From: Ascidiella aspersa
Taxonomy: Eukaryota
NCBI GenBank assembly: GCA_963924565.1
Contig: OZ004609.1
Span: 32,984,001 to 33,048,000 of the forward strand
DNA: 64,000 bases
Reading direction: 5' to 3'
A program made the position numbers and the translations under genes. This document shows positions 1-60,931 of the stretch, piece after piece. How positions within the stretch are numbered: the first letter of the stretch is position 1; every line of letters starts with the position of its first letter. The notes under the pieces are model-generated. The model was not told the DNA's origin. It searched no databases and saw nothing but the letters and a program-made list of their open reading frames with translations.

Positions 1-31
1 GAACATTGCCATTGGAGCATAATTTCTAGAG

Positions 32-437: not shown

Positions 438-670
438 TTCTAGAGGTTAAAGTTAGATACAGAAAGAATATCAAACACATTTAAGGATGTCAAAGTGTTA
501 CCTACTTGGGCTAAACATTGCCTAGTCTTTAATTTATAGTAACTACCATGATAACCAATTCTTTTTAGACTTTCCCTATCACTCTGCATGATTTCTGACG
601 AGGATGCCCAACAGGTTTTGTCCAAGTCTAATTATTCCTCATATCTAAATGTGAAATTTCAAACTTGCAG

Positions 671-3600
671 AAGTTTTGGTTTAGTCAAAGAGGAACAGTG
701 TGAAATAGAGGTTTTTATAAGACATCTTGCATACATTAGCAATTTTCCACATTAAAAAGTTTATTGAAAATAAAACAATCTGTCTTGGTATTGTTTACAG
801 ATCAGTTAATATATTTTAATGTATTGTTCCATGGTTTGTTATGAACGCATAAAAATAAGTTTCAGCTTGACATTTAATAGCAGGCTGTATTTACCAACCT
901 AAAAAATGCCAGTAAGTTTTTATGATTAAAATTTTTAAAGAAATCTGTAATAAATTAACAACATACAAAGCTGAAAATGTAAAACAAGGCTGCTGTTGTT
1001 TTGCTTGGGTTTTTGATGAATGAATCACTAACCACAATAAACTTATTATAAACCTTGATATTGTTTTTTGTATCTAGACTTGTGGTTACATTTTTAAATC
1101 ATATAAGCCTAAAAAGATGAAATATTGGTAAATAAGAAACTATATGTGTAGAGGGTGATTTTTTTATAAACAAACCTTTTCTTTTTTTAAACACTTTTGG
1201 ATACAGAATGTTTTGTGCGAGGTTTTGACATTAACTATACCTAACTAATTTTTTCAACTGATCTCTAGTTTCATTTTGAAGAATTTGAAGAAGAAAACCA
1301 GCTGGATATTGAAATGGGCTTTTTGACATATGAAGATAACTTGGTAGGAGTAAAACAGTAGTTTATGTTTAGGGACACTTGTTTTCCAATTACGTTTTTT
1401 CTTTAAAATGTTGAGTTTTACTGAAGTTTTTACTAGTATACTGCCGTATTTAAAATAGGTACTTGTATAACCATTCTGTACCTTCCCAAGTACAGTATAT
1501 ACCCTTTCTCAACCTGTTTACGCGGTGACCCAAACATAGAGCGTTAGTTTACTGAAATCTTGCTCAGAACAAATCTTATTTAATCTAACCATGTAAAGTA
1601 CTTCGAACTGCAACCCAACTAACTTAAACAGCCCCCCAACTGTGGGTCGCAACTTGTGTATTAAGGAACACTGTGCTAAGACACTTTATTGATGTGTATT
1701 TCTACGATAAAAAGTTTTAAACTTAGCGGTTTAATTGTAATGTAAAACCTAGAAAATTGGTGTAATGCAAAATAAATTCTGTGTTTTTTTTGTAACAAAA
1801 AAAAAATGTAACAAAAAAACGAAAAATTGTCATTATTCTGAAGGCAAAGTTTGAAGAATCTCAAATGGCTTTGGAAGTTAATGAAATACACTTTGAAGAT
1901 CTCACTAGGGGTCGTTTTGCAAACATCTCAGATCTTGTTAGTGGCTTTACCTCTGGCCAACTTGACACTTTTCCACCTGAGTTAACCGTCCAGGTTCTCC
2001 ATATTTTGTCAGGCGATTTTTCCCTGTCCAGAGAAAAGGCAAGTCTAATGACATTTATTTTCTAATTTACTGCATATTTTTTTTAATTTATTGCAATTTT
2101 GTGTGCAGTCCATGCACAAAGTAGTTCCAGAAAAAAAGGTAAAAATTAAGTTTTAGTTTTTACACATCTTTTTTATTGTACTTACAGAGGCGTAAGTTTT
2201 TGGAAAAGATCCTGGACACTGGATATGATGTAAGATTAAAAAATAAATGGCCTTATCTTGGTCAAAGTATTTTATGACATATAAATAAAAACATATATGA
2301 ATTTGACCCAAAAATTAACGATGTAACTTACTCCTCTTGAAGAGCATAACAACAATCAAATGACATACACCACTTGAATAGTTTCATTCAATTAAAAAAC
2401 AGACAGAACCCTTTTTTAAATTTACAGATCTCCAGCCAAGAAAACATCACCGCTCTTGGTGTCCTTGCAACTGAGCTTCCGTTGTCTGTCTTTACTTGGA
2501 AACTCATGAATGACACTTTGAAAAAACGGCCGGAACTAAAAAAGTACTTTTCTAAGCCAAAGCGACTGAAAGTTCTAAGCAATGTAAGCGTCATCTTCTT
2601 GATAATATTTGTGTGTTAAACCAAATAAAATTTGTGTAAAATTTGGCTCTAGCTTTTGAATTATTTTTCAAATTAAAAATATTCTTTGTGAATTAAATAC
2701 TTTATTCAAATACTGGTTTGAAAATCTTCAGTGGTGAGATGAATTGAAAACCCATCTGAAGGCAAAATTTTTAGCAAGAAAATTTGGACAAAAATACAGA
2801 TTTTTAAAGAGGGCATGTCTACCCAAGATAATTTAAACTAAAAAATGTAAAACACAAAGTAAAACTGCAGTTCTAATCTAGTTACTATCATAAAACTCCT
2901 TGATTCAGTGGTTTTCGAGTTATTAACATAAAACTCCTAAGTTCAGTCGTTCTCAAACTGTTTCCTTGCGGAGCCTTTTGGAAAGATTTGTTGAACTTGC
3001 GATGCCCGCCCCAAGCTGTAGAAATTTACTTGTTTATTTTTTTTTCACAAAATCATGATCAATTGGTTTTGTTTTAAATGTGTTTGTCATGGCATAATAA
3101 AACCTGTAAGCCAGGAGTGCTTAAACTTGGGTCCATGAACTAGTTTTAGGGGGTCCATGAAGGCCAAATTAAAGAACTAGTGTATACTTAAGAAATAATT
3201 TATTCTTTAAAGAAAACACTTTAATGAAAAATTAAACGGTTTTGCACTGAATGTATAGTTAGACTCCATTTACCTTTCACATTTTTCGGACCGAAATAAA
3301 CAGAGTTATGAAGTCTATTTGTATTGTGACCTCAATTTATGACGTCATTTTGGAGCATTTTCTTGCCTACCAGGGTCCATGCAAAGCAAAAAAAAATGTT
3401 AGGGGTTCGCCGTAAAACAAGTTTAAGAACCCCTGCTGTAAGCATTTTACTACAGCGATTGAGTTTTGATACAAAGAAGAATCATTGTTTAAAGCAAGTA
3501 AAAAATAAAACAATACACAGTTTGAAAACCACTGTCTCATGTTATCCAAAAATATATCTAAACAGAAATGTTTCAATTATATGAAAATTATTAACTTAAA

Positions 3601-6600
3601 ATAAAAAACAGTAGAATGAATCTGACTTTATGCAGATAAATTAGTATATTTTTTTGTTCTTTTTTTTCTATTGCCAAGTGGATTGAAGAGGAAGGAATAT
3701 ATACAGTTTTAAAAAGCAAGTCAGAATTACTTACAGACATGCCGTCCAGTGTTATTTTAACTGCTAGCAACTTATTGATTGAAGATGTCAACACAACAAG
3801 CTGGAACAGAATGCAGGTAAGCTGTTACAAAAAGTCTGACATTTAAAAAAAAGTGGAAGTTTCAAATTCAAATTAATTTTTTTTATCAAGACTATGTGTA
3901 ATGGTCTAACTTGTTTAAGTAAGATAGAAGCTGTAATTAATTATTTTATTTTTTTGTTATTTTATCCTAAAAAAGATAAAAAATCCTTTTATTTTGATTG
4001 AGTTCTTGTAGTGCAGCTATCTTTAGCAAAATATTGTATGTTAAAGAGTTGCATAAACTCCCCTTTTCATTGTATTTTCGTTGTATAGGCATTAATGATT
4101 ATTCAACAACACAAGGTCACCACTGGATCATCCCAACTTACTCTAGATGACTTCAGGTTAGACCAACTTTTTAAAATACTCCTATTGCTTTTTATTACAC
4201 TAAGTAACACTAATTTTATTTCTGTCTTATTTTTTATTCCCCTTAATTTTTTTTGTGGCCCTGAGTTAACATATCCTGTTATTTTTTGTGTATCAATACT
4301 GCTTTTTGTTATAATCACACTTTTAGCCCTTTTGTTTACATAACAGTAGACTTCTAACTATGTATGGATAACACAAAATGTAAAAATGCTTTCCCAGAAC
4401 CTTGGGAAAAGTTGCAATTGGATTGAGCTGTGATGACGTGTCACATATCTTTTATCAGGATATTTTTAAAGTTATTTCAATGCTTGACAAACAAGTTGCA
4501 GAACACTTTTCAAGCGACCTGGTAATAAAATGATTTAAGACAGTTTGTTAAAACAAAAAGATCTTGATTTTTAAATACAAGAGCTTAAAATTGATTACTA
4601 ACATTGTAAAAATAGGCAAGGCGTATATTTTAGGCTTACGAGGAACTTTGTGTCAAAAAATTGTGCATTTATTTGTGTTTTTAGGCCAACTGTTTTGCAA
4701 CCAAGCTATATTTTATAATAAGATTACGCGGGCTGCTTCTTGAAGATGTCCAACAAGTGTTTGGCTCCACTATACCAGGAAGCATTCTTCTCTATATGCC
4801 GTGAGAGTTAACTTTTAGATTTGTTTACAGAAAATAGATTTGAAAACAGAAAGTGGAACACACAAATTGGTTCAAATTAAGGCTAGGCTTTAAAACAAAA
4901 ACTATACTTAGGTGTTAGCTATCTGTTCGGTTTAAATTTATGCAAAAAATCGAAAAACGCATAAGAGTAATATCGTGGGAAAGTGCATGGTATTTCAAGT
5001 GCTTTAATTTGTTTTTATTTATTCCCTGCTACCGAACGTCAATTTCATGAAATTTTATCTTGAATGCATAGCGTAACGTTGTCAATTAAGCCCACATATA
5101 TGTTGCCAAAATAAATTTTCTTAAACAGTCCATATTTTTTGCAGTCACTCTATGCTCCTGTCTGTCACTGATCCTTCTGTTTGTATTGCTATGGTGGAAA
5201 AACTGGAAAAAACTAGCTTGAAACATCTTTCTGAACTCACTGGCAGCTATATATTTTCTGGCATATTGGCCTTGTCAGAAAGATGCAAGGCAGGAAAATT
5301 TATTTTTTTATTTTCGTTTTAAAGAAAATCATCAGTGTAAATAAAATATGCTTAGCTAAAAAAAATTGGGTAGATCTAAAACATTAACTGTTAAAAAATT
5401 ATTTTAGGATAGAGATAAATTAAAAAAAAAATTCATACATTTGTACAAATAATAAAAACATATAAAATGATTAAAATGGTTTATCAAGTTGAATAACAAT
5501 TTTTTTTCGTTATTGTACATTTTTATTCTTAGGAATTAGGTGCAGTGTATGAAGCAGCGATGCCTTTCTGGGCTGACCTTGTGTATAACATTACCAAGCT
5601 TGATCACAATATAGATGAAGGAAAAGAAATGTCAGATCATGAAATTGAGAATCCTAAAAAGCCGCCAAACTTAATTCACAATAAACTTGATGGAAATTTT
5701 TTTTTCAAAGGGTTTGGTAAGACTTTTTTTTTGCCAAAAATGTTTTCACATATTTTCTGTTTTATATGTTTATTTAATTGTTTACATGATTTTTATTATC
5801 ATTATTTTTGCTTGTTATATGTGGAAAAGGAGTAATAATAATCATTTTTTGTGGCTTTTACTCATATCATTTATTTAATGACTCAAGTGGTTTGTAGTAC
5901 TTAGTGAGATTTTAAAAGGGAAATTATGATATTTAATTTACCATCTAGAATTAATTTAATTTTACCATCTAGAATTAGTCTACCATCTAGATTATAGAAT
6001 TATTTACCATCTATATATAAACAATTTTGTTTGCTTATAAATTTTTTTTAACTATTTTGGTACAAAATTAACCAACTTCAGAGAATTTTATATTTTTATT
6101 TATTTATTTTTTTTTTTTTATAAGAAAATATTTAACTATTTTGGTACAAAAATAACCAACTTCAGAGAATTTTTTATTTAATTCACATATGTTTACCGGT
6201 TGTGCCAATATTTCTACCACAGCTCCTAGGGCAAAATGGGTTTCCTCCTATTACCACCGCAGACACAGCAGAAGCACAGCACTTTCCTGTTTGGACACCG
6301 ACATATTTCCTAACCCAGTTGTGGCATGGCACAAATGGTGCAGACAAATGTAAGCACTTTAGGCAATCACCAACCGGAGTTAAAAGAAAATATGCCTCTC
6401 TATTTCGCGTACATTTTTTACAGCAAGTTTTGTTTAAAAATTATTTTCTAGCTTATTTTGCTATTCTACATGTATATTTTCTACTTAATATTGGGTTGGT
6501 CATAAAAACCAAAAGCATCTTTGAACACACTTTAGCAGTATAAAAGATACACACAAACATACGTGTTTGTCAACTGTTATCATTCTAGAGTCTAGCACTA

Positions 6601-9600
6601 GATTCTAGACCTTCTTAAGTCGCTTTTTGACCAATGCAGTATTTTTGATGGCATTTTAGCAGAATTGTTACGAAACTAATGTGTGCCTTACAGCCAGGGT
6701 CCACAATACTTTCACAAAGTGGCCGAAGCCTTAAAAGACAATCTTATGGACCTGACAGCAAGTGTTCCCAGTGATTTCGAAGCTTTCTTGCCTTACATGC
6801 CGGACGAAGTACTGCATTTTGCCGCTGGGGTAGGTTTACTGAGGTTGCAATAAAGCCCTAATTAAAAGTGATTGATTGATTGAAGTAGGTGTGGCTGTCC
6901 AGTCAGAAACCAAGAGACATATTTTCTACCCAAACTTCCGGTGTCATCCATAAACAGCCACGCCCAGCACATTATATAACACCCAGAATGTGTCTTCCTT
7001 ACTCACATTTATAAGTTTATATTCTTACGCAACAACAATAATAGGGCTACAAAAAGTGAATTTACTATTCACAAACAAGGTATTGTTAAGTTTTCTACTG
7101 CATTAATGCATTTTAAAGCTTGTAATATGTATATATAATAAATTGATTATAAGTCGGGACTTTTTTTTACTAAAGGCAAAATACATTGACACTGTTCATT
7201 TTAGAACTGAAAAACATAACCTAATTCTAAAAGTCGCTTAAAACTTAGTAAAGAGTTATATTTATACTGTTTGCAACCCCAGGGGTTAGTCACTCTTGAA
7301 CAAAAGTATTTTATTTTCCTTATTCATATTCCTAAATGTAGTGCGAATCACAGGTTGAAATCAACAACTACCGTTACTACAATTAAACTCTGTTGTTTAG
7401 GAACTTTGCCAGTTTATTCTTAAATCATATTTATTTTCCCTCATTTCCAGGTAATTTTGCTTTTACTTGCTAACATTCAAATATGTCTATTTTTGTCAAC
7501 AGCCTTTGCTGATGAAATCTTTGCGACATTTCGATCGGATTGTTATGATCAACAACAGTCAGCAAGTTTTGTTGGGCGACATGACACCCACAGTAATTAA
7601 CAGTGATGATATCGGAATCCCATTTGGTGAGAACGTAACCCAGCTTGATTTCAATCCAATCAACAAACACTTTGCTGAAATTGCTGCGAATAGAATCATC
7701 GATTATTTAGCATTAGATCCAGGTAAGACAATTGGCTCAGTTTCTTCAAGTTCAACAAGAAACGTCACCGCTTTACTATATATCTTTGCGCCGCAAGTTT
7801 GATTTAATTATTCGTGATACAACTAATATTCAATTTGTACCTTATTTCTTCCAATGTAGGTGTTCTATGCAGAAATCGATAGAGAATCTGCCTTTATCTA
7901 TATCGACATAATTTATTCAGTATTTTGCCGTTAGAGTCTGACAAACCGACATATTTTAGAATTTCCAAAAATTGGACTAAGTCTGCATACACTCCACCTT
8001 TTGGGGCCAGCTGTCACCGGGCTAAGCTCAAATATGCTGCAACAGATTAACGCCAGTATATTTGAGGACGCAATTCCACTTTTAGGCCGGTATAAAGGAT
8101 GGAACAGGGAACAACTGAATGCCATTAAGACCATCATGACGAGTGTGAGTTGTATTGTTACCACTTAATTAGATTACAGTGCATTTGTGTTACTGCATAA
8201 TGGCTCTACTGGAATAAAGCGTAATACCATTACAAAGTTGCTCACTAAAAAAAGTATTCCACGGTTCTGCTTATTTGAAGCTTTTCAGAAAATACTCACA
8301 ACATTAAAATGTTGCTAGATGAATAAATATTAATAAAAGTGTTTTTTAGCAATATACTTCCGACTTTGTTGTCTGAGTCAAAATCAGTCATTTATAAGTT
8401 CTAGTTTTAAATAGAGAAATTTATTTCGCCAATTCGGCATCATCAGTCTCTGAAGAAACAAATACAACATGATGCAAACACGTAAACTAGGTGGTAGAAA
8501 TTAAAAGTCATGTGAAAATGATAATAGAACCAAGAGCAACGAACTACGCGACTAGGCATAAAATCTAAGATAAAAGATAAAACATTTATCTTTATTTTTT
8601 AGATGGTTTTGTACTACTAATTTAAAAAATGTAGTAAAAGTAAATAACTTTAAACTAGTTTCTACTTCCACTATCTTTAAGTGTTCTTTACGTTAGTTGT
8701 TGTATGACTTTAACAGTTCTCCAATTCAGCGTCGCATATATTTCACAGGTCAGCTCAATATCAGACTGGTCAAGCAACCTGCTCAAGGACATGGGTCATT
8801 TGGCTGCTATGCTTGACATATCTGACATCAATCGCTTCATGTACTTGGATCTTGAGACAGTTGGGGCTCTTGAGAAAGTGGATTGGCCGACAAACGAGCT
8901 CGTCAGTTCTTCATTAGTTTGTGCTAGACCAGTGGCCAGCAAACTTTTCTCGGGCTGGATATAACTGTAATGCCTGACCAACCCGGGCCGGATAAATCTT
9001 AGGGTTTCTGATTGCGGACTGGATAAAAAAATGTCGAACTTTATTATAACTTAATTATTTTTATGCGAAGGAAAAACAAACAACTATGCAATAACCACTG
9101 GACCCTAATAAATTGTCGTACGGTTTAATATTTCATGAAAATTGCATTCGACAACGTGTAATTCTTCACGAAAAAAAGCGCCTGGTCGGATTAAGTGACC
9201 CAGGGGGCCCTAGGCCGGAATTTGCTGACCCCGATTCTAGACAATGAGTGTGTTTGCTTTACAACAAAGTTAATCGGGATAATTATTTTTTTTATCTAAT
9301 ATCCCCAAGCTTACTTATTAACGACGGGTTAAAGAATGCTTTTGTAATATGAAATTAAGGCAAGTGGAAAATTATGTAAAAAAAAATAATAACTGAGCAA
9401 ACGACTTTATTTTTGAATTAATTAAAGCTTGGGGTGTTTAATGGCTATCTGTCAATATTCATTTGCAATTACGATATGTCGAGACCATACCATTTGCCAT
9501 TGCATTATGCCTGTTATCCGGTTATTTTAAAACTGCTTATTTTTTATGTTTAGAAATGGGCAATCGCACAGAATTACATGAACTCTGGTAGTTTTTCCGC

Positions 9601-12600
9601 AATGCAACTCAAAGGTTTCGAATTGGTTGTATTTCGAAGTCTGCTGTGCGGAATTCCAACCTACTACATCAAATACATTCCCGAAGATTCAATGCGGTAG
9701 GCGTGATAAAGTTTTGTGGCTTTCGAAAAACGATGCACAATTATATTTGCTGATAAGTTACTTTCAGTTCAAAGTAGTTATTCAGTGTCGGCGTAACTGG
9801 AGAAAATAAAGCTTGTTGGGTGCGGTTTTATTGTGTTACAAACCTGTCCTTAATTCCTGTAAGTGAAAGCACTCGTTTAGATTTTTTGCTACATATTCTG
9901 AACAGTATCGTTATATTTAAAAATCTGCCTACTTTTCAACTTTGCACTCCCAACTATTGTAAAGTTGCATTGTTGAAGGTTTATTCGAAACGTTCACAAA
10001 ATTATACCGTTCACAAATTGAAACCGTTTTATTTTAGGCACGGTATAACTTTCCTCAAAAACAAACCCGACGATCGTTTAATATAATTTACCTGTTATTT
10101 AAAATTATTTGTACATTTTAAGCAAAGTGTTTTTTTTTTCTTTAAAGTATCCCGAACACAGACTTAAAAAAATCCAATAGTCGAAACGCGATCGGAAATA
10201 GATTTATGCAGAGAAACAATTGAAAGGTCCAAGCAAATTTTGCCTTTCTAATCTCAAAACATATTTTTTCCAGCTTTGCACTTCCAACTATTGGAAAGGT
10301 GCATTGTTTTGATGCTGAACGGATCGAAGAGTTCAAAGCTAGAGCTGATGCGATTTTGGGTGATTACGCCTTAACGCATGGAGTGGCACAACTCGGCGTC
10401 CTGGCCAGTAGGTCTTCCAAAACTTGTTGTTTTTGTCTTCATTATAATTATTTGTTAAAGCAGCTTTTATATTTGACATACTAAGTTGTCTATCTTGTTA
10501 TAAATATATTTCTGTCTTATTAGGGCTTGAGAAGAGCACCGCTTTCAAACACTCTAAACACATACTAAACTTCTATGTCTTATTACATTTGTTTTTTATT
10601 TTTGTGTTTAAAAAACAGGAAAGATTCACAGCTACGTTTTTACAACTTTTTTAATTGATTGTCTGTTTAGGTGCATTTACAAACTCAGAGCTCAAAGCGA
10701 TGAAATATTATTATTTTCCATCTTTTCCAAGGAACGCACTCAAAATTATTCCCAATCTAGTAAGAATGAAGAACCTTTGTGCTGTTAGCTTAAAATGTAA
10801 AATATGCTTTAAATTAAATATTTATTGTTTACCATTCGGTATACCACTTTTAGTTGTTTGACATATGTCATTAAAAACTGATTAATATTTTAATTTTTTA
10901 TGAAATAAAGTGACATCGTATTTGAAAAAATATTCAGTCCACATTTTTTGGAAAAGATTCGGCCTCTTTATTTTTTTGCCTGTTGCAAATTTACTGCTTA
11001 AAGTATTAACTTTTGTTATGTCTTTTTCTTTTGTAGGATGCCTTCAGTACCAGTAAACTTGAGTATTTTGGAATTGAAAATGGTGCAATAGTTTTATCCC
11101 GGAAGGACATATTTGAGGATTTACCACCGAAGTGGAAAAACACCATTTTTAAAGCTGCCTTTGGTGCAAACGGTGGTAAAACATTAGTAACATATTTTGC
11201 TTGTCTTTCATTAATCCAAGCCACAAGTTGTTCGATATGCAATTTGGAAATGACAAATCAGTTATCTTATGAAACATGAACAGTAAACAACTTTATTAAA
11301 ATTTAATATATTAATGGCAAATATAAAAAAAACAAAAAACGTCATGTATATTGTTGTTGACTGGGATAGGAAACAGTATTTCCGTTTAATATTTACCTAG
11401 ATGGCCTTCAGGTTTTTACTCCAAAATCAATAGAAAGCTTTTCTACTAAAAATGCATCAGCAGATTTCAAAATAGCCATGTTCCGATTATGTTCTGTTAT
11501 GTTCCACCACGTAATTCCGTTCAAAAGCAATTAAAAAAAGCTACAATTAAAGGTGACATGTGTTTTTTAGCCTTGATATCGAGCCAAATCAAATCGTTAC
11601 GATCTGGAAAGCTTCAAGCTTCACTCGCATTCCACAATATGATGGTTAACATGTCAAGCAACGTACAAATGCTATTTCACAGCACCCTAAACTCGTCAAG
11701 TATATTGCAGCTGCTCTATGGACTAAGAAACCCCTACGTTTACGAAACGCCGCCCCCTCCCAAGATAAAACGCTCTATTATGAACATCGACATAAAAATT
11801 ATACGTAAGTGATCAATGACGAGAAGTTTAAGCTTACTTTCAATAAAGACCCAATTACAATAGTGTTGTACCAAGCCATTTTGTTGTTAGTCTTTCATTC
11901 TACAAGGTTATTTTTTAGGTGTGGGGTCATAATCACGGCACCAATTTAATTTGGCCATGTCTTTAATTGTTTCCACAGTAAAGCTTGTTAAAAAGTTTAT
12001 TATCAGCCTTGCCTGTTCTTTAGCCAATATATTAGTTTTATTTTGTATTAAAACTATAGATTTCTGTACTGCCTAGATTTGTTAATAAGCTGTAACTCAA
12101 CTTTGTTTTTTTTTTCAGCAAAAAATACGATTGAAAAAAGTGCAGTGGTGGCAAAGTTGTAAGTAGAAAAAGTATTATCTATTAGCAGCCCACATTTATT
12201 TATTTTCATTATATCTGGTGTTTTGGGGCTATACAAATAGTTAACAAAAAAAATATCAAATACCAGCATAAATGATATATCACCAGAAAACCTGGCAAGT
12301 TACAGATTTAAATTTTTATTTTAATATACATTCTTAACTATAAAGAAAAACTGCCGAGGTAATTTTCAACTTCAATCCTTAAAGTTGAGGTTATTGATTT
12401 AACAGTGTGAACCAACACGCCGAAGATGAAGTCTTTCTTGATGTACTTGAAGGAGTGGTTTCCATGAACAATCTTGATAAGGAAATACTCAAAAAGCTTC
12501 CACCACAGTTTATGGACAAAGTTAAGGTGGGCGTAATGTTTACCCAATTAAACATTGACACTTTACTTTTTGTACATTGGTTGCCGAATGGGCACCAGTC

Positions 12601-18600: not shown

Positions 18601-21600
18601 CGAACGGTATGACTAAATGGGTTGCAGCATTTCCCTGGTAAATTATTGTATAATATTTTTTTGTGGAGGCTAGTTTGTTAAACGTTTTAAGAATATTGAA
18701 GTGACGTAGTTTAGCCTCGTTCTAATAAAACTTTAACAAAAAAATAAATAACATGCTTATGTATTTTCGAAAGGTATAACTGTGACTAAAATATAACTTT
18801 TATGATTATAATAAAGCTTTTTAGAAGGCTGGAATTACTTAACTATAATTTATAATTGTTTTGTTTAAGCTAGTTTGCTTAAAGATAACCTTCTTTACAA
18901 CTAGTATAAAACGTATTTTTTATAATGTTATTTAAAATGGGATCTAATTCTAAATGATGTTGGAACACACGCATTCGTGAAATTGTTGATTGTTTGCTTG
19001 TAACGTTTTTGCTTGAAAAATATTCTATGTTAATAATAACCCTTCACAACTACTATAACACGTATTTTTTACAAAACTATTTAAAATAGTGTCTAAGTAA
19101 GGTTCGAACACACGCGTTTGGGAAATTGTTAATGGATTGCTTGCAGCGTTTTTCCATGTAAATTATTCTATATTAATTTTGTCCAGTATAGTTTGTAAAG
19201 CGTTTTTAAAAAATAAGGGTAGTTTGGAACACTATATACGGATCTGTTCATAAGTTTAATGGTGAAAATAACGGCCCAAATAGAGGTAGTTTGTTTTAGG
19301 AAATATCCGAAAAGGTGCCTCGTTCGAAAAAAAACTTTTTAATTTCCCTTTAAACGAAAAAACCTTTGTTTTAAATTTATTATCCTGCATATAATTAAAC
19401 ATTGACTCAATTTGGTATACTATGTATATAATGTTTAGGACAGCGGTTCTCAACCAGTGGGCCATGGCACTGGTGCAATGGCCCACTGGTGGGCCATAAT
19501 AACGTTTGAGGTGGGCCACAGACCAATTTAAAAAACCTAGATTTAGTTTCATTTGTGTCATTATATTTAAATTTACAGGAATAGTGGCTTGGGGAGGAAT
19601 TAAAAAAGAATGTAACTTTATTGTTCAGCCGCAAGTATCTCACCAATGCACGGTTGAATAAATAATCTGTTTACAAATATGTTCTGCTGTGTTTTGTTCC
19701 AAACCTTTTTTACAGTTTTTATTTTTTATTGGGCCACAGAATTTTTTTTGCAACGTAAATGGGCCACGAAAGAAAAAAGGTTAAGAACCACTGACTTGGG
19801 ACTTCCATAACAATGCATTCACGTTTTTTTTTGTACCGTGGTGATTCAAAACTTAAGTTGCTAATTTAGTCATATTTTCTCAGCTGCAAGAGTTGAGCGT
19901 TAGCGAGATGATGGAGAAAGATCTCGGTGCCTTCGCCGCCGAAATTCCGCTCAAGAAAATAAAGGAACTTAAAACGGTCAACTTGACAATGGTTAAAGAT
20001 AAAACCTGGAATCGAGGACAGGTATGACTGATATATTCGATTTTGCTACTGACAAATTAGGTATAAGGAGTGTGGCTATAAAACACAATAATCGACGTTT
20101 ACAGCTAGGAGCAATGCAAAAATGCTAAAACTAAAATCTTTTTTATCAATTTTAAAAGCATATATTTGAATCAATGGATATATTAGGGTTTGTAACGTAT
20201 AAAATTAATAAATAATTAGATGTTGTTACAACATGAAGATTTAATTATTTTAAATGTATTTTATGTTAACTTAAATAAAACAAATAATCGTTGTTTAAAC
20301 AATATTAAATTATCGACTATATTTTAATAGTTTGCTTTATGTTATGCTAGGCTGCAAGGCTTATTGAAATTGCAAATGTCACCAATGACTACGACCTCGA
20401 TGCTGTTAAAGTCAGGTAATTTAACCTTTTGTTTTGGTAATGCCATTGACAGATTATTGGATGATGCTTCAGCAATAAAGAACGAGCAATGCAAAACTAA
20501 AAGTATACCATTTTTTCGCTTATTGTCCTGAATGAAATTTTGTTGTAAAAAACAGTTTGCCGTTATTTGCAAAAAACAAAAAACGTTAGCCATTTTTAAT
20601 AAAAACAGACAGGTAAGGTTTTTTTTATAAATTTTCGATCCAATTCCTTCTAAACGAGTTTGCGGAGGGTAAATGAAGGGTTGTGTTTTTGTTGGGTTTC
20701 TATTTTATTGTTAGTGAAGTGCTAATTTCATTTTTTTGATACAAATCAATCTTCACTTCGCTTTTTAGGGAGCTTGGCACGACGGTGGTTGGTTTGAAAT
20801 GTAGGCACATCATGAACGTTCGATACGATGAAATCTTACCAGTGACCGTGGCGCTGGACGATTCAACCGAAATGTCGTTCGATATGGTAAAAATTAATAA
20901 ACTTTCAAAACATCAGTTGTTGAGGTAAATTGAAAAGGTTGATTATTCAGACACATTAGTTTTTCTTTCGACGTAATTCAAAAGTGAAATAAAAAAAGGT
21001 TGAATACAAAAGCTACTACTTTTAGATGTGGGTTTATCCAATGATTTACACAAATACCCCTATTAGCTTGACGTCTAATGAAGATGAATTTAAGTTGTAA
21101 TAAAAATAAATGTGCTGTTGCTTCCAGATATAGAAACGTCGCATAAAACAAATAAGTACCGGAAGAACTTATTTTCAGTGTAATTATGTAATAAATTGCT
21201 TCAAAATGCGGAAGAAGAAAGTAGTGCCTTATAGAAAAAGTCTAGATGTGTTTCACCGGGTTTCATCAGCAATGCCTTTACTAAAAAGTATCTGTTGACT
21301 TAAATTAGAATGTGCTGTGGAAAGAATTGTATTAGATTTGTTGTCAGATAAATTTTCACGCAGGACGAATGCATTGCGGAAAAGCTTCACTTTTCGAAGG
21401 AAGTCGAACTGGGAATCGATTACCTCAAAAACTCAAGCAACCCCGATCTTCCCGGCATGCTGGGAAGCATACCAAGTGACGTGGCGCTCTTTTTCAAGTA
21501 AGATTTATATGAGTACACAATGCACATTGCACAATTCACAATTGCACATGCAATAGTTTAGCACCAAAAAAAAAAAATATATAATCTAAAAAATCTTAGC

Positions 21601-24600
21601 TTGATTATCTTCAGTAGAAAGAGAGTGGCCCAAATAATAGATAAAAGATTCATTCTTTTATTAGCAAACGTTTCGGCAATTTCTTTTGCCATCATCAGTG
21701 CTCGGCACGAGACCGCTACCGCCTCCTTCTGTTGGAGTCGCTGCTTATACAGCAGCACAAGCCCGCTCTCAATGTTGACACGGTCTCAGTCCCCCTGTAT
21801 TTGTTTAATACTTAAATGGTATATTCGCGCAATTCCATCGTCGTGTTCATATTTCATTTTTAATTTATTACTAATTCCCTCTTACGTGTATCTGTTGCTT
21901 CCCATTGACCTCATTGTCTTATCTTTGCCCTACTTTCGCCTTACTGATGTAATTTTTCGTTGCAGTTCTTATCTCCGTTACTTTGCGACTTCCTTTTCTG
22001 TTTATATAACGTTCTAAAACGTCCGAGCGTATATATAGTGACTCGTTTTTATCTTAGCCTCACTTACTGCACTGATGATGGCAAAAGAAATTGCCGAAAC
22101 GTTTGCTAATAAAAGAATGAATCTTTTATCTATTATTTGGGCCACTCTCTTTCTACTGAAGATAATCAACAGATCCGTGTTTAGTGTTTCTTAGCTTGAA
22201 ATGTTGTATTTTGGGAATGACACACATAAATTTAAATTCAAAATATGTTTTTTTTCCTTTTTTTTCTTTTACCGGTGGGTAGAACTTACTGGCGCCAAAT
22301 GCCGAATAAACTGGTCCCACGACCCACACGTATGCCAATTATACACAAATAGCAGTGATGAATTATAAAAATCCCTAAGACTAAAGTATCATAAACCTTT
22401 CGACCTATTGTTGTGAACTAGTGGTTCTCAACCTGGGGCATCCAAAACCCAGACGTTAACAAGAAGCTTTCGGGGTATCTTGGATTGCAGTGCAGTACAC
22501 GCGTGTTGCTAATGTTTCAATATCATAACTGCAGGAGAAAGACTTGGCAATTAGGTTTCACAGTTTCTATTTACTTAGAGTTACCACTTTCTACAGCAAG
22601 GAAGGCCAACCAGTCAGAGACCCAGAGCTACATTTCTTACTAAGTTAACCACAATGAGCTAAATGGATTTACATTGAAGTAGTTGCCAAAACACGAGTCG
22701 CATAAAAACTGGTTGAAGAGCCACGGTTTGGCCACCAATGTAGTGTTAAATTCCGTGGGATTCTGGTTAATTTTATATTTTGAAACTCAATGGTGCCACA
22801 AATATAGTTTTAGAACCTCTATTTTTTGTATTTTTACGTTATCCAGGCCTCAGCTGCTTAACTTTACTTCATCGCACGCTTGCGGTAGGCTGGTGGAGAA
22901 AATCGGTCAAGCCAATCTCGATTACTTGCCCGACATTGGTGGCGTATCAAGGAGGAAAGAGTTGGCTCTGGTCTCTGTCGAGTGCCTGGTATGCCTGAAA
23001 CTGACGGCTTTACAGACCTATTAACTATAGTTGTTAGTTTTTTACCAAGTAAGTTATGTTTTGACGACCAAGTGAAATATGTACGCCTTTCTGGTGAGAT
23101 TCCCTTTTGGCTTAACTTTAGTGTCTGTATAATTTTTATCGTTTACACGTCACACCTGACTTACACTTTCTAAACTTGAAATCTCGTGTTTTAAACAATA
23201 CTGAAACTCGATCTACAGCACCGACTCTTTTTCTTTTATGGATCATTTTCAAATTATTATACGCTACAGCAAATCACACGCTTGTTCTTTCAGATGCGCT
23301 CGGAAAACCGCACAGGCGGTGACGGTTTGTCTGAGGAGGAAGTCTTTAAGTTGGGCGACATGTTGTGCGACATTCCGCCCGATCAAATCGCTAAAATACA
23401 GGACAACGCAACCGAAAGTGCCTTGGAAAAACTAAAGTCCTGCATTCCAAGGTTTGGAAAGTAGCAAGCCGAACGCCGCTTGATTGACGAAGTAACACAA
23501 AATCTATTTTGTAAATTGTTATTGTTATATTGATTGAGAGAATCTACACTACGAAACTTAAATAATAATTTTATATGTATGACTTGGACTGCTCTACTAC
23601 TGTAGACTAACTGGACATTTTAAAACGGAGCTTGTTTTCTTGGCACCTTTTTAAAAGCAATGTTCTGGTTGTCAATACAATTTTAATACACAACAATTAT
23701 AACCGAACTATTTGTATTTGCTCTAAGCCAGGGGTGTCCAATTCAACCATGCCGGCGTGCCAATTTTTATCTTATAACTTCTTCCCAAGTTTCGTAACCG
23801 AACCAATTCTTTTTAATCATAAAAGCGCTTTTTTACCAAAAATAAGAACGTTTATTTAAACTTGAAAAAAAAAATTGTCTAGTAGAAATGCGCATCACTA
23901 CATGAAAGTGTCTCTCGGTGAGCTTTTGTTTGTTCACACCATGCTATATAATATTATGTGAATGCTAGCCTCCACTACTATATCAAAAATAATTGTTGGT
24001 TGTCGTGATTGCCGCGATTGTTTTATATTGTGAACAAACAATGGCAATTGGCTGTATAACAAACTTAGTATTTTCTGACAATTGGCTGAATAACAAATTA
24101 AGCTTTTTTGACAATTGGCTGAATAACAATTTTAGTATTTTTTGGGAGGGCTTGCGTGCCATTTTTTTATTAGGTCGTGCCGCTTGTTGGACACCCCTGC
24201 TCTAAGCTATTTTCAATATGCTAATATCCAAAGTCAAACCGATAAAGTAGTTATCAGCATTAATTTGCCAAGATGTTTCAGCGCTAACCTTCCTCATAAA
24301 CTCAGTTGTTTTGTACGACGAAAGAAAAGTTCCCGGCAATGTCATTAAGCACATACCGATTTATATTGTTGTTATATTGTAATATTGTTTCGCTTAAATC
24401 GAAATCTTTGCAGATTCTCACGCGAGTATGTGAAGCCGGTGGTGGACATGGTTCACAAGCAGCTTGGATCAGATGCTTCCGCTTGGACTGTGGAGGCTCT
24501 CGCTAAAGTTGGACCCATCGTCGCACTTCTCGTTGATGATGAAATCGCAAAGATCGACAATGTAAGTTCTACATTAGGTATTGTTTGTCTTCTTTTACAA

Positions 24601-27600
24601 TTAGAATATTTTTATTACGATCAATGCCAGTTGCTAATCCTGTGTGATATATAATTTTCTTTATTGCAAAATAAGAATCAGCAAGTGTTCAAATTATGCT
24701 TATCCCATTCATCCGTTGAAGACAAAGGAGTTGCGCTGTATACTGTATAGTTGACCGATCAGTTCTAAAAAAGAATATACAAAAAAAACATACAGGAAAG
24801 GTAGATTTGGGAATAAAGTACACAAAAGGCCTTTAGATTTTTTCTAATAATAGTCTATTCTTCGTTTTAAAAGATTTTAATTTCCTGCTTAAATGTAACA
24901 AAAATAAATCTTTGTTTTCTATTACTGGCTTTACGCTTAGTGGTATGCCTACTTTTGCTTTCATCAGATCTAACCATTTTATCGACTGCAACAACATTTG
25001 CTACGCATTTAAATAAACTCGCACTGAACTAGTAAGCCGTTAAAAAGTTTTTTTGCGTGTTAAATAACCTTGTTCGTTTTAACCGCCAAATGATAGCTTT
25101 TGCAGTAATCTTCAATGTAGCGCACCACTTTACTCATTTGAATAAATGACTTAGTTCAAGTGAAGTTATTTTTCAAGTTGACTTAAGTCAAGTCACTTTG
25201 CCCGAAAAACTTCAAGTCAAATCCATTGAAAACAGTGTCTTAGTAATTACAATACCACTGCTTTGTTTTCCAGGAGACTTTCTTGGAGGCTTTTGACAGC
25301 ATTGTGCCACCCGATGATATCATGGAGATGGTAATCGTTAACTCTAAAGCGTTTTACCGAAAAGCGTCCGAGGTGCTTACTCCTGCTCCTACTGTGAAGA
25401 ATAGCATAACAAAGAGACAAATAGGTTCGACAAGCCGGCAGGCCAGATTAAATTTCAAACACCAATATAACAAACATTACCTTAAAACTATAGTATAATG
25501 CTAAATAATGAATTAAATCTTTTCTACAAAAAAACATTTTGTTACAGTCTGCTGCTTAGCACCACATGTCTTCAGAATAATTTTATTAAAAAAAAATTGT
25601 TAAAACAACCTACTTTTCATTGAATACACGGCCATTGTACCGGGCCTGAGTTGCATATCTATAGCCAAAAAGTCTTTCAGGTGAAGAAAATTGTAAACAT
25701 TAGAAAATAAATGGATTCTAGTCTACAATGTGCTCAAAATCCTATGTTCCACTGTACAAACAATCATCCACATAAACGCACACAAGTCAAAGAAGAGCCT
25801 TGCTATTGGGACAAAAAAAATTGACTGATCTTTTTTCTATATAAAGAACAAATAAAATGCCATTAAGGGGAAGTAAACTTAACAGTTTTCTGCAGCAAAT
25901 TCGCTAAGAACTGTGTCCTCGCTTACTTTTAGTTGAAACCGGGCCTGACTTCGACCAGATAACGGCTCTTGGAGATGGCAACGTGAACTGGACGCCCGGG
26001 CAACTGAGCTCCATTTCCGACGAGGACTTCGCCAACTCACTTCCCGCACTAGGAGCGATCGAGAACTGGAGCGGCGAAGCAACTGTAGCGCTCTACGATC
26101 ACATGATTCAGGTGAAAGAGCGTTCATATTTATCGTACATATTATCTAGGAACCTTTGTTTGGTGTTTCTTTATACGTTTAAAGTTTGAAGCATCGCATG
26201 TGTTTTTTGGATTACTTTTAAACTGCATTATTTTATTCCACTGTATTGTTCGTTTTTACTTACTTAAAGTTACGCTTTCAGCCAGGAATATAATGATGCA
26301 GTTTTATTTTTTCACGTTTCACCATTAAGCCATGTTTTTTTATTGTAAAAACACTTGTACCTGTTGTGATTCACCGGAACGTATAGTAATTTTTGCGAAA
26401 ATAATGTAACTGGGTTTAGCAGTCTAACCGAACATGTTTTGGACACCGATAGGCAACTTTGGGTTAAGCTTTGTGCTCGAATTCCATTTTGTAACCTAAT
26501 ATTAGAAGCGCCCCTCAAAACTACCCTGTGTCGCTCTTTGTAGATATAAATTGTACAATCTGATTTCAGGTTTAGTTTAACTTTATTTTTATTTTCAGAC
26601 GTTTAACGAGCCGGAGACTTGGGAAGTTGAGGTGATATCTGAAGCCAAGCACATTCTCGCCAACATGTCGGTCGACGGCATTCTCACGTTAGACCTCACC
26701 GACCCGGATGCTGTTGCCTCCTTGTCCGAAATCAAATGGAACCACCAACAGGTTATCGATTGCAATCTGAATATGTAAAATATAAAGATTGAAGATATCT
26801 CCTCGTCCTTGTACGTTAATGACGACAATGACTTCGGACAACCAGCTGTGTTGGCAAAGCGAAAAGAAAATAGGAAAAAGTGTGTTGCCAACACAGCTGG
26901 TTGTTTTTTTCAAGACTTGGGCAGCGGAATGGTCCAGTTTCCTAAAGGCCTACCTTTAATTTTAATATTTTTAACTTACTCACGTCGTACGTCGCTTTGC
27001 TCTCTATTGTTATTTTTGTATTAGGCAATGCAAACACGTATATTTCTCTAATAATGACTAGAACTTATATATGACTGATTTTGACTTAGTCAAGAACGTC
27101 TAAAGTATATTGCTGATTAACGATCTGTCAGTTTTAAACAACACCTGCCTTTGCATATGCCGCCCCTTCGCACATTTTTTCAAAGCGGAGACTGGATTAA
27201 GGTTGATTGCACATTTACTGTAAAATAGCTTTTTGCTTTCTACCAAGCTTTCGGGACATTTAATGCTTCCTTGATCATTTGTAGTGTTGCGAAATTAAAA
27301 CGTCCAAACGCCTTTTTGCCAGTTACTTAATCGAATATTTTCTTTAGCATTAGTAGATTTAGTTACCGCTAACTGTTAACCTACTATTATATTTGGACTA
27401 ACTTACCTTCAAAGTAGCAATAGCAGCGTTGGTTCGTAAACCATGCCTAAAATTTCTATGTTAATTTGATATCGGATCGCCACCGGTACCACCCTAGTAT
27501 AAACTTTTCCCAATTTAGGACAGTAACTCATGCCGGAAAGCATTCGAGTCTTACATACGCTCTATCTATTGGAAATCTGGTAATATTAATACCTTTACCT

Positions 27601-30600
27601 ATTGCCTTGCGTGTTTTAACTTGTCTATGCCATGTAGAATGAATATTATTATTAGGTTGCTTCTCAGTCACATTAACTGAAGGTGATATAGGCTCGTATC
27701 GAAACGTCTTAATCAAGATGCTGTCGATTTACTCGACCTTTTTGGCTTTGCAATTTATTATCAAGCTACATTACAGATTCGTGCATAGTATACCCAAGTA
27801 TAAATTTTTTTTTGTCAAAAGTGTGTAGCAAATATTTTTTTACTGTGTCGTAAGCTAAAAAAGTTATCACTGCAATAAAGAAATAAAAACAAACATTTTT
27901 TTTTAATTTCAATATTTTCAGAGAGCAGCTGCATTGGCGGGCTACATTAACCAAAACTCGAAAAGGATGTCGTCACTGACGAGTGATGACATCACCGCTC
28001 TTGGTGACATCATGTGCGGGTCTTCTCCCATCGAGCTGATATCCCTTCGTCACGACGTAATGAGGTAGCGGTGGATATAATTGAAGATAACTATTTCCAA
28101 TATAACATTTTAAGATAAAATAAAATTTTGTTTGGTATGACGTCGATTAATATACATCGGTAAATCTTTTATATCAAACAACTTTGATTTAACGTTCATT
28201 TTTTGAATGTACAAAAAGTGCTCATTATTTGGCCGTTTTGATGGAATGTTGGTAATAACCAGCCGTATTAAATAGATTTAAAGTTTAAATCTGTGAAAGT
28301 GTAATAAAAAAAAATGACGCATAGGCTTACACTTATCCCAGAAATTAGCAAGGAGACTTTCCAACTTTCGTCAGAAACAACCACTTTACTGCTTTTGTGT
28401 ATCTTTCTATAGCGAGTCGATGTCGGAGTTGGGTTACTCGGAGTGCTTCGAGCAACCGCAGAGTGACGTTCTTTTCTCAATTATCTTGATGCTGAGTGAT
28501 GAGGAAATGCCAGACGCTCCATTACTACAAGAGATGGGATCGCTAGCAGGTATAGTCAAGTGTTTAGGATCCTTACCGATTACTAGAGTGTGATAAGGTC
28601 GCGTTTATTATATTGACTCTCATCTAACTTGATCTTGTCGAAAAACTGTTAAAATCAAAGGTGAACTGTAAACGTCATACAAACGATCTAAGAGCAGACT
28701 TATTGTTTATTAAAATATGTCACCGAAAAATAAATTACGATAATAACGAATAAAACAACAATCCTCAAACTTAAAAACAAATAAAGTCGGTAAATTTATA
28801 GGATATTTGATAGAAATGTGCTTCGACAATAATAAAATTATTTGTTAACCGGTGTAAAAAAATTCAGGAGATTTTGTACAAAATTCTTATTAGCAATTCG
28901 ATTTTTTAATACTTGTTTAATTGACAGCTGGTCTGGCCGTGGAAGAACTGCGGGACATTTCCCTGGAAACGATGCCTTTTCTGAAAGAAGTCTTCTTTAG
29001 AAACATCGACCCAATTCGTATCAGGGTATTTATTGACGGACCAAAAAATCTCTATTGCGGATGATTTACCTAATCAAGTTATTTTATATATGCGCTTATC
29101 TGTTAATTATTTCAGCACATTTTACCAACGGCAGGGTAACTGATAATTATACAGGTAACAGTACAGAAACAATCTGGTATGCGTTTTCGTTTTTTTAACG
29201 CGAAATGTACGTTTGTTAATAAATATGTAACGCATTTGTAACCTATCTAGGTATTAGAACAACAAATTGGAAGTTTAGCACACAAGCACAATGCGCATAA
29301 AAAACTGAGACACTGTTGAAAATGCTGATATTGTTGACATATGCTGTGGATTTGGCGTATTATCATAAAATCAACCTTACTTTTGTCCTATAAACCCTAC
29401 TTGTTGTCCTTAGGACGGCTTATCCCCCGACCAGCTGGCAACCTCTGGTATCACAAACGTGGCGACCGTTATGAACAAACCAGACCTCTTCGATGTGCTT
29501 GGAAAAAGTCAGCGGAACGCTCTCCAAATGGCGGCATACGGAAGAATTTTAAGTACCTCACAGTGAATTGATAATATCTCACCCTAATAATTAGCTGTTC
29601 AGTGTTCACGAGAAGGCACTTTCGTTTTAACTTCGATCTTTTTATTCAGTTTACCTTTGCTTAGAACTATATAGAAGTTATTTATGTGTCCACAAACTCC
29701 ACAAAGCTTTTAGGTCTACGTTTAACACTGTATTCCCTTCTATAGTTTAATTAAGTGGCGACTAGTTGGTTTTCATTTCGAAAGATGGTTTGAAACCAAG
29801 CCCTTAATTTCTAACCTAATACAAGTGTTCTTAAGCTGGGGTTCGTAGACTCATTAGGTGTATACGTGGAATGGTTTCACCTGATTGTATTATTTAAAAA
29901 TGGAATGATTTGTTTAAAAGAAAATTGATTAATATATTTTGTCAAGAGGGTATTTAGGTTCTATTTCCGTTTTATATTTGGGCGTGATTTTGACCGAAAA
30001 TAGCAGGTTTTAAGTCTTGTTTTATGTCAAGTTATGATGTAATTTCTGAAGAAATTCATGCCACACGAACCAATTTTTTTGTGGGTGATCCGCGTTTGCG
30101 TATTAATCCAGTATTGTTACACGATTGTGCGTGCTGCCTCATAATTCTCCACAAGTGGCACTGAATTAGTTTTTCCCTTTGAATAAAGTGCCCTCCAAAG
30201 TTGAAAGCACCACTGCAGCCTACAACCCCAACAGCAACAACACGAACTTCACCGGTGCCATCGATGTTCAACTTGACAGTAAGTTATTCGGGATTCTCGC
30301 TTCCCGTGAACGCTAATTGTGGCCGCAGCTAGTACCGGATTCAGGGTACTGTAGGCCTAAGGCTGTTAACTTAAATAAGGGCCTAATTTTGCAAACCAAG
30401 CAACAAAAAGTAATAGAAATACGCACATTTTGACTCTACTCATTCATTGTGAAGCAAAAACTGTACTGTAGTTGTACTGCATCTATATCACTATCAGGTA
30501 TCAGGCTTATAAAAATTTAACCTTTAAAAAAATTGGGGGCCGACTTTTTCCAGGGCCTAAGGGTATAGTCTTAGTAGCCTAATGGTTAATCCGGCACTGG

Positions 30601-30808
30601 CCGCAATTACCCAACTGTCGAAATTTAAAGTAAAATAACTAGCATGCTGTGATTGTTTCCAGATTCCGGCGCCGCGGGTACTATTGATTCAATGGAGACG
30701 CCTACTAATGCAACCATTGGATCGCCTGGCAATTCGCCGTATGTAGTCGGAACTGCAAGATACGCCGCTACATTTTTCTGCTTTCTTGTGTCGTTATTTA
30801 TATATTAA
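671..30808 (+). CDS. Gene A: multi-exon (~47 exons in window) otoancorin/mesothelin/stereocilin-like GPI-anchored protein with two tandem modules; 5' end probably upstream of the window; roughly 2100+ aa in window
   Basis: Hand splicing gives a continuous phase-compatible frame, e.g. 1269-1343, 1844-2038, 2188-2229, 2428-2583, 3679-3816, 4089-4156, 4398-4521, 4685-4800, 5145-5289 ... 11571-11804 ... 30663-30808 (exon 671-710 is tentative). It contains repeated short helical LG-x-x-x-x-GL/C motifs (LGKVAIGLSC, LGDMLCDIPPDQI, ITALGDIMCG, QEMGSLAAGL) typical of this family. The last exon ends ...GSPGNSPYVVGTARYAATFFCFLVSLFIY*, a GPI-signal-like tail. Confidence 0.75.
3112..3435. mobile_element. 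hAT MITE
   Basis: TIR caggagtgcttaaactt / aagtttaagaacccctg; perfect 8-bp TSD ctgtaagc (3104-3111, 3436-3443). Confidence 0.85.
8930..9234. mobile_element. hAT MITE
   Basis: TIR cagtggccagcaaa / tttgctgaccccga; TSD tgctagac / ttctagac. Confidence 0.65.
12972..13137. mobile_element. Penelope-like pLTR fragment forming a hairpin, with a degenerate hammerhead core
   Basis: Inverted arms ttaatggtgaaaataacggccca...ttgttcaaac / gtttgaacaa...tgggccgttattttaccattaa enclose CTGATGA (13062-13068) ... GAAA (13086-13089). Confidence 0.6.
18880..19175. repeat. Diverged tandem duplication of a ~150-bp intronic unit
   Basis: ataaccttctttacaactagtataa...gaacacacgcattcgtgaaattgtt recurs as ataacccttcacaactactataa...gaacacacgcgtttgggaaattgtt. 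Confidence 0.65.
19230..19285 (-). repeat. Short end fragment of the same pLTR-like family
   Basis: cactatatacggatctgttcataagtttaatggtgaaaataacggcccaaatagag, nearly identical to 12972-13026 and 40093-40136. Confidence 0.75.
19441..19793. mobile_element. hAT MITE
   Basis: TIR cagcggttctcaacc / ggttaagaaccactg; degraded TSD gtttagga / acttggga. Confidence 0.7.
21601..22186. mobile_element. Penelope-like pLTR insertion with 101-bp perfect inverted repeats, each carrying a minimal hammerhead ribozyme core
   Basis: 21601-21701 is the exact reverse complement of 22069-22169. The arm reads gca-CTGATGA-t-ggcaa-aagaaa-ttgcc-GAAA-cgtt-tgc, then AATAAA, and the right end is aacagatccgtgtttagtg. Confidence 0.75.
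22069..22106 (+). ncRNA. Putative minimal type I hammerhead ribozyme (mirror copy on - strand at 21664-21701)
   Basis: Intact CUGAUGA and GAAA boxes, 5-bp stem II ggcaa/uugcc, palindromic mini stem III (AAACGUUU), GUU triplet, short stem I gca/ugc. Confidence 0.6.
23729..24199. mobile_element. hAT MITE
   Basis: Perfect TIR caggggtgtccaa / ttggacacccctg; perfect TSD ctctaagc (23721-23728, 24200-24207). Confidence 0.9.
30330..30599. mobile_element. hAT-type MITE
   Basis: TIR tagtaccggatt / aatccggcactg; TSD gccgcagc / gccgcaat. Confidence 0.65.

Positions 30809-59430: not shown

Positions 59431-60931
<1,501 letters not shown>

Follow-up and report, generated by a model that had tools for sequence, protein, structure and literature searches.

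A gene with two otoancorin-type modules in one reading frame, and its one-module paralog, in Ascidiella aspersa

Layout and transcription of gene A

We analysed a 64,000-nucleotide stretch of the Ascidiella aspersa genome (NCBI GenBank assembly GCA_963924565.1, contig OZ004609.1, positions 32,984,001 to 33,048,000 of the forward strand; hereafter the window) together with the 30 kb that precede it. The window carries two tandem plus-strand genes of the otoancorin/stereocilin/mesothelin family. Gene A contains two family modules, its 47 window exons (569-30808) reading through as one open frame without a stop, and paralog B (31931..53211), which contains one module, starts 1.1 kb past the gene A stop. 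An intron occupies positions 1..568; gene A extends further 5', and its start probably lies 12.5 kb before the window. The complete model has 70 exons and 2,946 amino acids (aa), the 23 exons upstream of the window being predicted. Two exon starts proposed in an earlier note on this DNA were moved, from 671 to 569 (eight reads cover position 607, and the frame agrees) and from 4459 to 4398.

The model opens with a putative signal peptide (aa 1-23), encoded by two predicted exons whose ATG lies at G000:C3:32971526 (splice sites, open frame) and hydrophobic as in paralog B. It continues through 14 more predicted phase-1 exons (~430 aa, no known family) and one predicted 150-nt exon, the N-terminal region reaching up to aa 504. 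Module 1 (aa 505-1670) follows, with six upstream exons, from G000:C3:32980645, whose prediction relies on splice sites, the open frame and phases that agree with module 2, and with 20 exons in the window (569..11175, aa 767-1670), where a diverged otoancorin-like body is documented by the open frame, reads in every bin, junctions from 7722 and profile matches. Its most diverged zone (5533..7722), apparent from a gap in the profile matches, the alignment and the exon table, has one extra intron and two insertions and has lost the family cleavage motif. A 234-nt linker exon of phase 1-1 (11571..11804, aa 1671-1748), encoding PPPP and KIKR and present as a single copy in the 308.6-Mb genome, leads into module 2 (12119..29552, 24 exons, aa 1749-2878), a full-length otoancorin-like body according to blastp, the profile and RNA junctions to 14242. 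A stalk exon and a terminal exon with a predicted glycosylphosphatidylinositol (GPI)-type signal (30219..30808) complete the gene.

Within the model, 19-residue windows with hydropathy above 1.6 were found only at the N-terminus and in the last 20 residues, so that module 1 lacks a tail and module 2 lacks a signal peptide of its own; the earlier claim of a single GPI-like signal at the gene end therefore stands. By translation and hydropathy, the C-terminus is a predicted GPI-type signal consisting of a small-residue spacer, a hydrophobic end and the stop. A 2,936-aa version of the model contained 43 N-glycosylation sequons. The introns are compact and AT-rich, and two of those in module 1 (2038/2039 and 5289/5290) are predicted GC-AG introns.

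Transcription was followed in a stranded RNA run with the same species label (X3; 151-nt reads, ~6% of the run read), in which sense-strand depth was present in all 30 bins of 1-16.6 kb. Over 7400-14520, the interval for which junctions were listed one by one, we found 12 joints, 11 of them consecutive GT..AG introns from 7722 to 14242 with 5-21 reads each, the twelfth being a one-base variant (3 reads). The joint into the linker exon (11175>11571) was used by 17 reads with 13 start places and the joint out of it (11804>12119) by 12, with 21 and 8 reads for the joints 12158>12406 and 12526>13671; nine more reads at 12119 had loose ends that match the 3' end of the linker exon. No pile-up of molecule starts or ends was seen in 7400-14520 among the X3 reads, nor any transcript starting or ending in 11175-12119, the observation that according to the earlier note would have spoken for two separate genes. 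Together with the open frame of 569-30808, the junction reads on both sides of the linker bear out its central claim of two modules in one frame. Among the read-versus-assembly exonic differences in the rows listed, 14 of 29 were synonymous (21% expected), as were 13 of the 26 listed allelic differences in module 1 and the linker (again 21% expected); this excess indicates that module 1 is a maintained coding region under purifying selection.

Internal duplication and family assignment

The duplicated bodies measure ~1,165 aa (module 1) and 1,130 aa (module 2) and are 22% identical, with 237 of 1,064 aligned residues shared. Blastp gave two colinear matches on the diagonal (E 5e-26 over 682 aa and 3e-17 over 279 aa), and the local alignment score of 353 compared with 47.8 ± 6.5, at most 78, in 200 shuffles. 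Intron phases matched in order in 24/24 exon pairs, counted with two exon pairs merged where module 1 has extra introns, a value that none of 100,000 permutations reached (maximum 20). In the multiple alignment, 21 of the 24 introns lay within 3 residues of each other with equal phase, the three misses falling in the diverged zone 5533-7722. The common exon order, phases and exact lengths of 153 and 143 nt that had been noticed before are real, and exons of 138 and 139 nt are shared as well. The duplication spans the whole otoancorin body, bounded by phase-1 introns, and module 1, whose branch is about twice as long as that of module 2, is the more eroded copy. The correspondence had previously been placed in the distal 18-29.5 kb only; in fact, module 1 starts ~3.4 kb before the window, and its counterpart is the whole of module 2 (12119-29552).

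To place the modules, a 59-aa profile was built from one homologous exon of module 1, module 2 and paralog B and searched against 1.84 billion proteins, of which 115 matched. The 30 matches looked up, which come from sea anemone, rotifer, annelid, brachiopod and snail as well as from crinoid, hemichordate, amphioxus and vertebrates, comprised 17 otoancorins or otoancorin-like proteins, one stereocilin, one msln.L and 11 uncharacterised or unnamed proteins. Pfam scans of 24 matches found PF06060 and/or PF21058 in 21 (20 above cut-off); P0001 and P0036, also among the 24, were discarded as unrelated, false matches. A profile of 26 single-module relatives matched the gene A model in both halves, module 2 over positions 47-1073 of 1108 (independent E-value, iE, 9e-136) and module 1 over positions 119-613 (iE 5e-28) and 792-1042 (iE 4e-35); its members had been gathered with the 59-aa piece of the modules, and the matches reach far past that piece. 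Module 2 also matched the amphioxus otoancorin-like protein P0072 over almost its full length (blastp E 6e-47). In Pfam scans of single window exons, 3 of 43 gave sub-threshold family matches (E 0.037, 0.096 and 0.054), all in module 2 and two of them at consecutive profile positions. Conserved Cys/Trp columns were kept at 12/15 in module 2, 9/15 in module 1, with three misses in its poorly aligned insertion zone, and 10/15 in paralog B. A 27-member family alignment detected solved human mesothelin in the PDB at E 2.5e-6, the top match being the 120-aa chain HeliScrew4, and the AlphaFold model of P0072, used as a proxy (predicted local distance difference test, pLDDT, 78), was almost wholly helical. 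The PDB search with the 59-column profile was set aside as noise, the repeat proteins it returned arising from summed weak stretches, none of which passed singly in the top 35.

Both trees placed module 1, module 2 and paralog B together, with 0.96 support in FastTree (78 rows, 10 of 88 having been dropped for poor coverage) and a Shimodaira-Hasegawa-like approximate likelihood-ratio test (SH-aLRT) of 92 and an ultrafast bootstrap (UFBoot) of 61 in IQ-TREE (24 rows). The gene A modules were sister to vertebrate otoancorin plus mesothelin (joint clade SH-aLRT 93, UFBoot 97), outside the fully supported msln clade in both trees, and apart from stereocilin (one named stereocilin included). With moderate support, this suggests a duplication within the lineage of gene A rather than a fusion of two vertebrate-type subfamilies. 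Consistently with the profiles, phases and alignment, the blastp matches, the shuffle test and the single-module profile, the earlier proposal of an ancient internal duplication between similar halves, both of the otoancorin/stereocilin/mesothelin family, was upheld.

None of the 30 matches looked up among the 115 was labelled as a tunicate protein, and nothing in the 78-row tree joined the gene A clade. Single-exon word searches found no close relatives, and no protein of 2,054-5,000 aa was found with query residues 700-1150 of the amphioxus relative; since these are weak negatives, other double-module otoancorins may exist. Searches of the A. aspersa genome, at low sensitivity, gave no family copy besides A and B.

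Paralog B, processing sites and surrounding features

Paralog B (open model, 30 exons, 1,265 aa) is predicted to start with a signal peptide and a short pro-piece that ends in RIKR; its single module carries RRKRR at the family cleavage site and is followed by a predicted GPI-type tail. It is 70% identical to gene A from the linker Lys-Arg to the end (A aa 1734-2940). Its first two exons resemble the signal exons of A (50% over 22 aa, E 0.13), its third (32643-32729) resembles upstream exon 16 of A (45% over 31 aa, E 0.021), and its fourth, pro-peptide exon is homologous to the last 48 nt of the linker exon (75% nucleotide identity over 53 nt, 33270-33322). To judge from these matches, B looks like A minus exons 3-15 and module 1. 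Because B and module 2 resemble each other far more than either resembles module 1, B presumably originated later than the internal duplication and has since shed module 1. B was about ten times better represented than A in the X3 library, with groups of 139 and 249 reads, one of them across a B splice junction, against 5-21 reads at A junctions. Four A/B exon pairs are 88-96% identical (17782-17970/38817-39005, 18400-18606/40507-40713, 23294-23451/45171-45328 and 25933-26111/48576-48754), the other 17 equal-length pairs being 60-83% identical, and in three of those four the first 30 downstream intron bases are 63-70% identical; this looks like patchy gene conversion between A and B.

Two Lys-Arg sites of gene A are candidates for cleavage: KIKR in the linker exon (11762-11773), preceded by a Pro-rich stretch, and ITKR in module 2 (25406-25417), which in the alignment is homologous to the furin site of mesothelin at the boundary between megakaryocyte potentiating factor (MPF) and mature mesothelin. 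At the linker, A has Lys at P4 (KIKR) where B has Arg (RIKR); at the family site, A has Ile (ITKR) where B has RRKRR, and module 1 has no motif. Furin prefers Arg at P4, and PC1/PC2-type or other convertases can cut after Lys-Arg. The canonical R-I-K-R of paralog B at the homologous spot makes it probable that the linker Lys-Arg of A is a convertase-type site; the dibasic processing proposed earlier for the linker gains support from this, and is weakened by the Lys at P4 in A itself. The other part of that proposal, a mesothelin-like release of module 1 with the whole of module 2 left anchored, is not supported in that form, the mesothelin furin position mapping to ITKR inside module 2 and not to the linker. 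Mesothelin-type processing, if it occurs, would leave only the last 353 aa anchored. R-X-[KR]-R at the MPF/mesothelin boundary is absent from gene A and present in B, and A may still act as a mesothelin-type precursor via another convertase. As a side observation, an RHSR motif (R-X-X-R) preceded by Arg lies at 6258-6272 in an insertion specific to module 1 and is a possible replacement cleavage site.

ITKR of A and RRKRR of B align with RNRR in amphioxus, RKKR in a hemichordate, RRKR in eel and RARR in Xenopus msln.L; the alignment of mature human mesothelin with the Xenopus protein begins right after this RARR. Human mesothelin is a solenoid that furin cuts before E296 (PMC10035497). Within the 24 residues before the family site, R-X-[KR]-R was present in 41 of 78 aligned sequences and a dibasic motif in five; 29, some of them misaligned, had neither, and three were uncovered. 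R-X-[KR]-R occurs there in sea anemone, rotifer, annelid, snail, crinoid, hemichordate, amphioxus and many fish members, and bird and toad otoancorins are without a basic motif. From this distribution, the mesothelin furin position looks ancestral for the whole family. In the AlphaFold model of amphioxus P0072, RNRR lies in a low-confidence loop between helices.

In the N-terminal region of gene A, the 13 phase-1 exons 3-15 (~400 aa; L002:7939-9967 and L001:602-2845) belong to no known family and are absent from paralog B. Four N-terminal phase-1 exons carry Gly-rich amphipathic stretches, with one sub-threshold glycine-zipper match (E 0.004); Pfam scans of 19 upstream exons returned only sub-threshold glycine-zipper and other weak matches. 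A third module in this region was considered and rejected, as the region matches neither the modules nor itself. Further exons may hide between exons 16 and 17. An ESM Atlas search with the linker exon gave no match. Inside the intron after exon 12406-12526, a short degenerate copy of the end of that exon and the start of its intron lies at 12764-12810, and none of the joints listed leads to it. Short repeats of high copy number, with very high summed contig depth, occupy intronic positions 200-420, 3130-3440, 12970-13130 and 14500-14960, and are probably miniature transposons.

Past paralog B, 53700-55600 contains a short plus-strand open stretch and a minus-strand stretch that we take to resemble the end of a non-LTR (long terminal repeat) retroelement reverse transcriptase with a GIY-YIG-like tail. 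Small genes are closely packed at 57950-61900: presumably a TMEM267-like gene (57950-58990), a METTL5-like gene (59400-60950) and, on the minus strand, a gene for a small membrane protein (61170-61860). The upstream neighbours we take to be a PRPF3-like splicing factor gene (L003:700-6400, minus), a gene with a collagen stub and a fibrinogen domain (L003:7250 to L002:930, plus) and a long single-exon gene (L002:4780-5880, minus).

Interpretation, alternatives and known systems

The reading towards which we lean, with modest confidence, is that gene A is one spliced gene with two ancient otoancorin-type bodies, whose product would be a GPI-anchored helical-solenoid tether of double length, cut slowly or partly at its two Lys-Arg sites. 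The otoancorin body starts and ends on phase-1 introns, so that a tandem duplication would keep the frame; the first copy would then have lost its stalk and GPI exons and diverged faster, and B would be a later duplicate keeping module 2 only. The signal peptide would send a glycoprotein of ~2,950 aa to the cell surface, where the double solenoid might bind the overlying glycoprotein matrix as proposed for otoancorin and mesothelin, with twice the reach or two binding specificities. Members of the family are proposed to tether overlying matrix to the cell surface (PMC2628672). As a lead only, an otoancorin homolog, which may or may not correspond to A or B, is reported to be expressed in the testis of the ascidian Botryllus (PMC4523013). 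Because the basic motifs of gene A (KIKR, ITKR) are weaker than the canonical ones of B, a long tether under slow cleavage is likelier than a protein that cleanly releases module 1. Cleavage would be slow or regulated, and full cutting would give three pieces of ~1,715, 855 and 353 aa, only the 353-aa piece being anchored.

Several observations weigh against this reading. The 151-nt reads show the transcript as a chain of junctions rather than as a single molecule, and 6 of 23 loose ends were listed. Read depth is 28-30 at 11118-11157 and climbs past the linker entry, to 38-40 at 11638-11707, and 3-4 reads lie inside intron 11176-11570; given these and the short reads, minor isoforms of gene A are possible. 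The part of the model that precedes the window is predicted from sequence; it comprises the signal peptide and six of the 24 paired exons, and one boundary in upstream module 1 was picked via homology to module 2. Similarity of single exons is weak (9/24 pairs were mutual best matches), module 1 keeps 35/75 conserved family columns (module 2, 50/75; family median, 62), and none of its exons matched the Mesothelin or Stereocilin Pfam models in single-exon scans. The clade of the three modules has a UFBoot of 61 only, and module 1 is a long branch. Foldseek with the P0072 proxy model returned generic solenoids (template-modelling score ≤0.17) and no mesothelin among the rows listed. Finally, both sites retain Lys-Arg, so that efficient processing is possible.

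An alternative that we take seriously and yet rather doubt is that gene A encodes a polyprotein, convertases cutting the linker KIKR efficiently to free a soluble product made of the N-terminal domain and module 1, with module 2 anchored whole or recut at ITKR to leave a 353-aa mesothelin-like stub. The linker is indeed Pro-rich ahead of its Lys-Arg, the canonical RIKR of B at the same place would take off a 35-aa pro-piece, a basic motif lies within the first 130 residues in 4 of the 22 relatives inspected, and a module 1 that has diverged yet remains under selection would fit a separate function; however, A has Lys (linker) and Ile (family site) in the P4 positions that are Arg in B, and Lys-Arg pairs are common in gene A (39 dibasic pairs, eight [KR]-flanked motifs), which makes the motif alone weak evidence. 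The rise in depth at the linker and the reads in its preceding intron fit instead with mixed transcripts, the double form being one isoform among several and the upstream exons also splicing to the linker as in B, ending early as a secreted protein, or forming a separate gene. All relevant junctions are in phase 1, B has precisely the short arrangement, and there is a candidate exon containing a stop after exon 16 of A; but 17 reads use 11175>11571, no loose end appears at 11571 among the 6 of 23 listed (the smallest listed having nine reads), and no second signal-like segment lies between the N-terminus and the tail, which makes this reading improbable. Two adjacent genes joined by an operon or by read-through, or an assembly artefact, seem very improbable indeed: tandem paralogs do occur here, as B illustrates, and short reads do not show one molecule end to end, but splicing across the linker is in frame at GT..AG sites with similar depth on both sides and no pile-up of starts or ends, a stop or tail exon is absent from module 1 and a signal peptide from module 2, contigs from two other runs span the linker region, and halves that are 22% identical are not a haplotype duplication.

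A broader idea, which we put forward tentatively, is that the otoancorin job has been split between the neighbouring paralogs by tuning of protease sites: B, the more abundant transcript in the X3 library, would be a furin-cut one-module precursor, and A either a furin-resistant double tether or a polyprotein processed under regulation into three products, with a new ligand for module 1, the furin site being ancestral from sea anemone to fish and lost in the tetrapod otoancorin branch. Otoancorin, stereocilin and mesothelin are relevant to deafness and cancer, and their ancestral role and the bearing of length and processing on function are poorly known. The locus offers a natural comparison, with a one-module protein bearing two canonical furin motifs beside a two-module protein in which both are weakened, in a lineage that adjoins vertebrates in the trees. 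It also presents the whole otoancorin body as a duplicable phase-1 unit and the mesothelin cleavage position as apparently much older than mesothelin, findings of interest mostly to those who work on protein evolution and on the apical matrix.

The family, its fold, its single-module members across animals and its multi-module predictions are already known. No description of a double-module architecture was found in the open literature searched (main texts), and no RNA-supported ancient (22%) duplication of a whole otoancorin among the matches or in that literature; the architecture, which the earlier note did not know to have been described, is in that sense undescribed, with the reservation that multi-module family members exist in databases as shark and fish predictions. 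Like gene A, stereocilin (e.g. coelacanth H3AWV5) has a long N-terminal extension before the family body and a GPI anchor (PMC2628672), matching the predicted tail of A; unlike A it has one body, and the N-terminal region of A matched none of the proteins collected to that point (best E 0.68). The mesothelin precursor (MPF plus mature mesothelin; PDB 7ued, 8fsl) is homologous in its C-terminal part, its furin position corresponding to ITKR in module 2 of A and RRKRR in B; it differs in having 622 aa (PMC10035497), one body and a canonical furin site, and A lies outside the mesothelin-like clade.

Closest in build are otoancorin (OTOA) and the otoancorin-like proteins of amphioxus (XP_035685072.1), hemichordate (XP_070581149.1) and eel (XP_035279443.1), each gene A module equalling a whole otoancorin in length (~1,130-1,165 aa) and in Cys/Trp/Gly pattern, with a predicted signal peptide and GPI-type tail at the ends of the model and, in module 2, a basic site where the family has one. 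In contrast to them, gene A has two bodies and ~480 aa of unrelated N-terminal sequence, at identities of at most ~25%; among the relatives compared, every one that bears the name otoancorin and is close to full length has a single body, XP_034029550.1 (marked as low quality) showing a partial repeat. Several family bodies in one predicted chain are found in shark and characiform proteins with 2-5 mesothelin-like modules (P0122, P0012, P0050), namely those of zebra shark (XP_059510198.1, 7,881 aa, five modules), whale shark (XP_048465576.1, 4,700 aa, three modules and part of another) and Hoplias (XP_066510539.1, 3,098 aa, two modules), both shark chains ending like gene A in a single hydrophobic tail. 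These automatic predictions differ in belonging to the mesothelin-like branch and in having younger repeats, neighbours being 46-88% identical compared with 22% in gene A, and the trees point to an origin independent of that of gene A.

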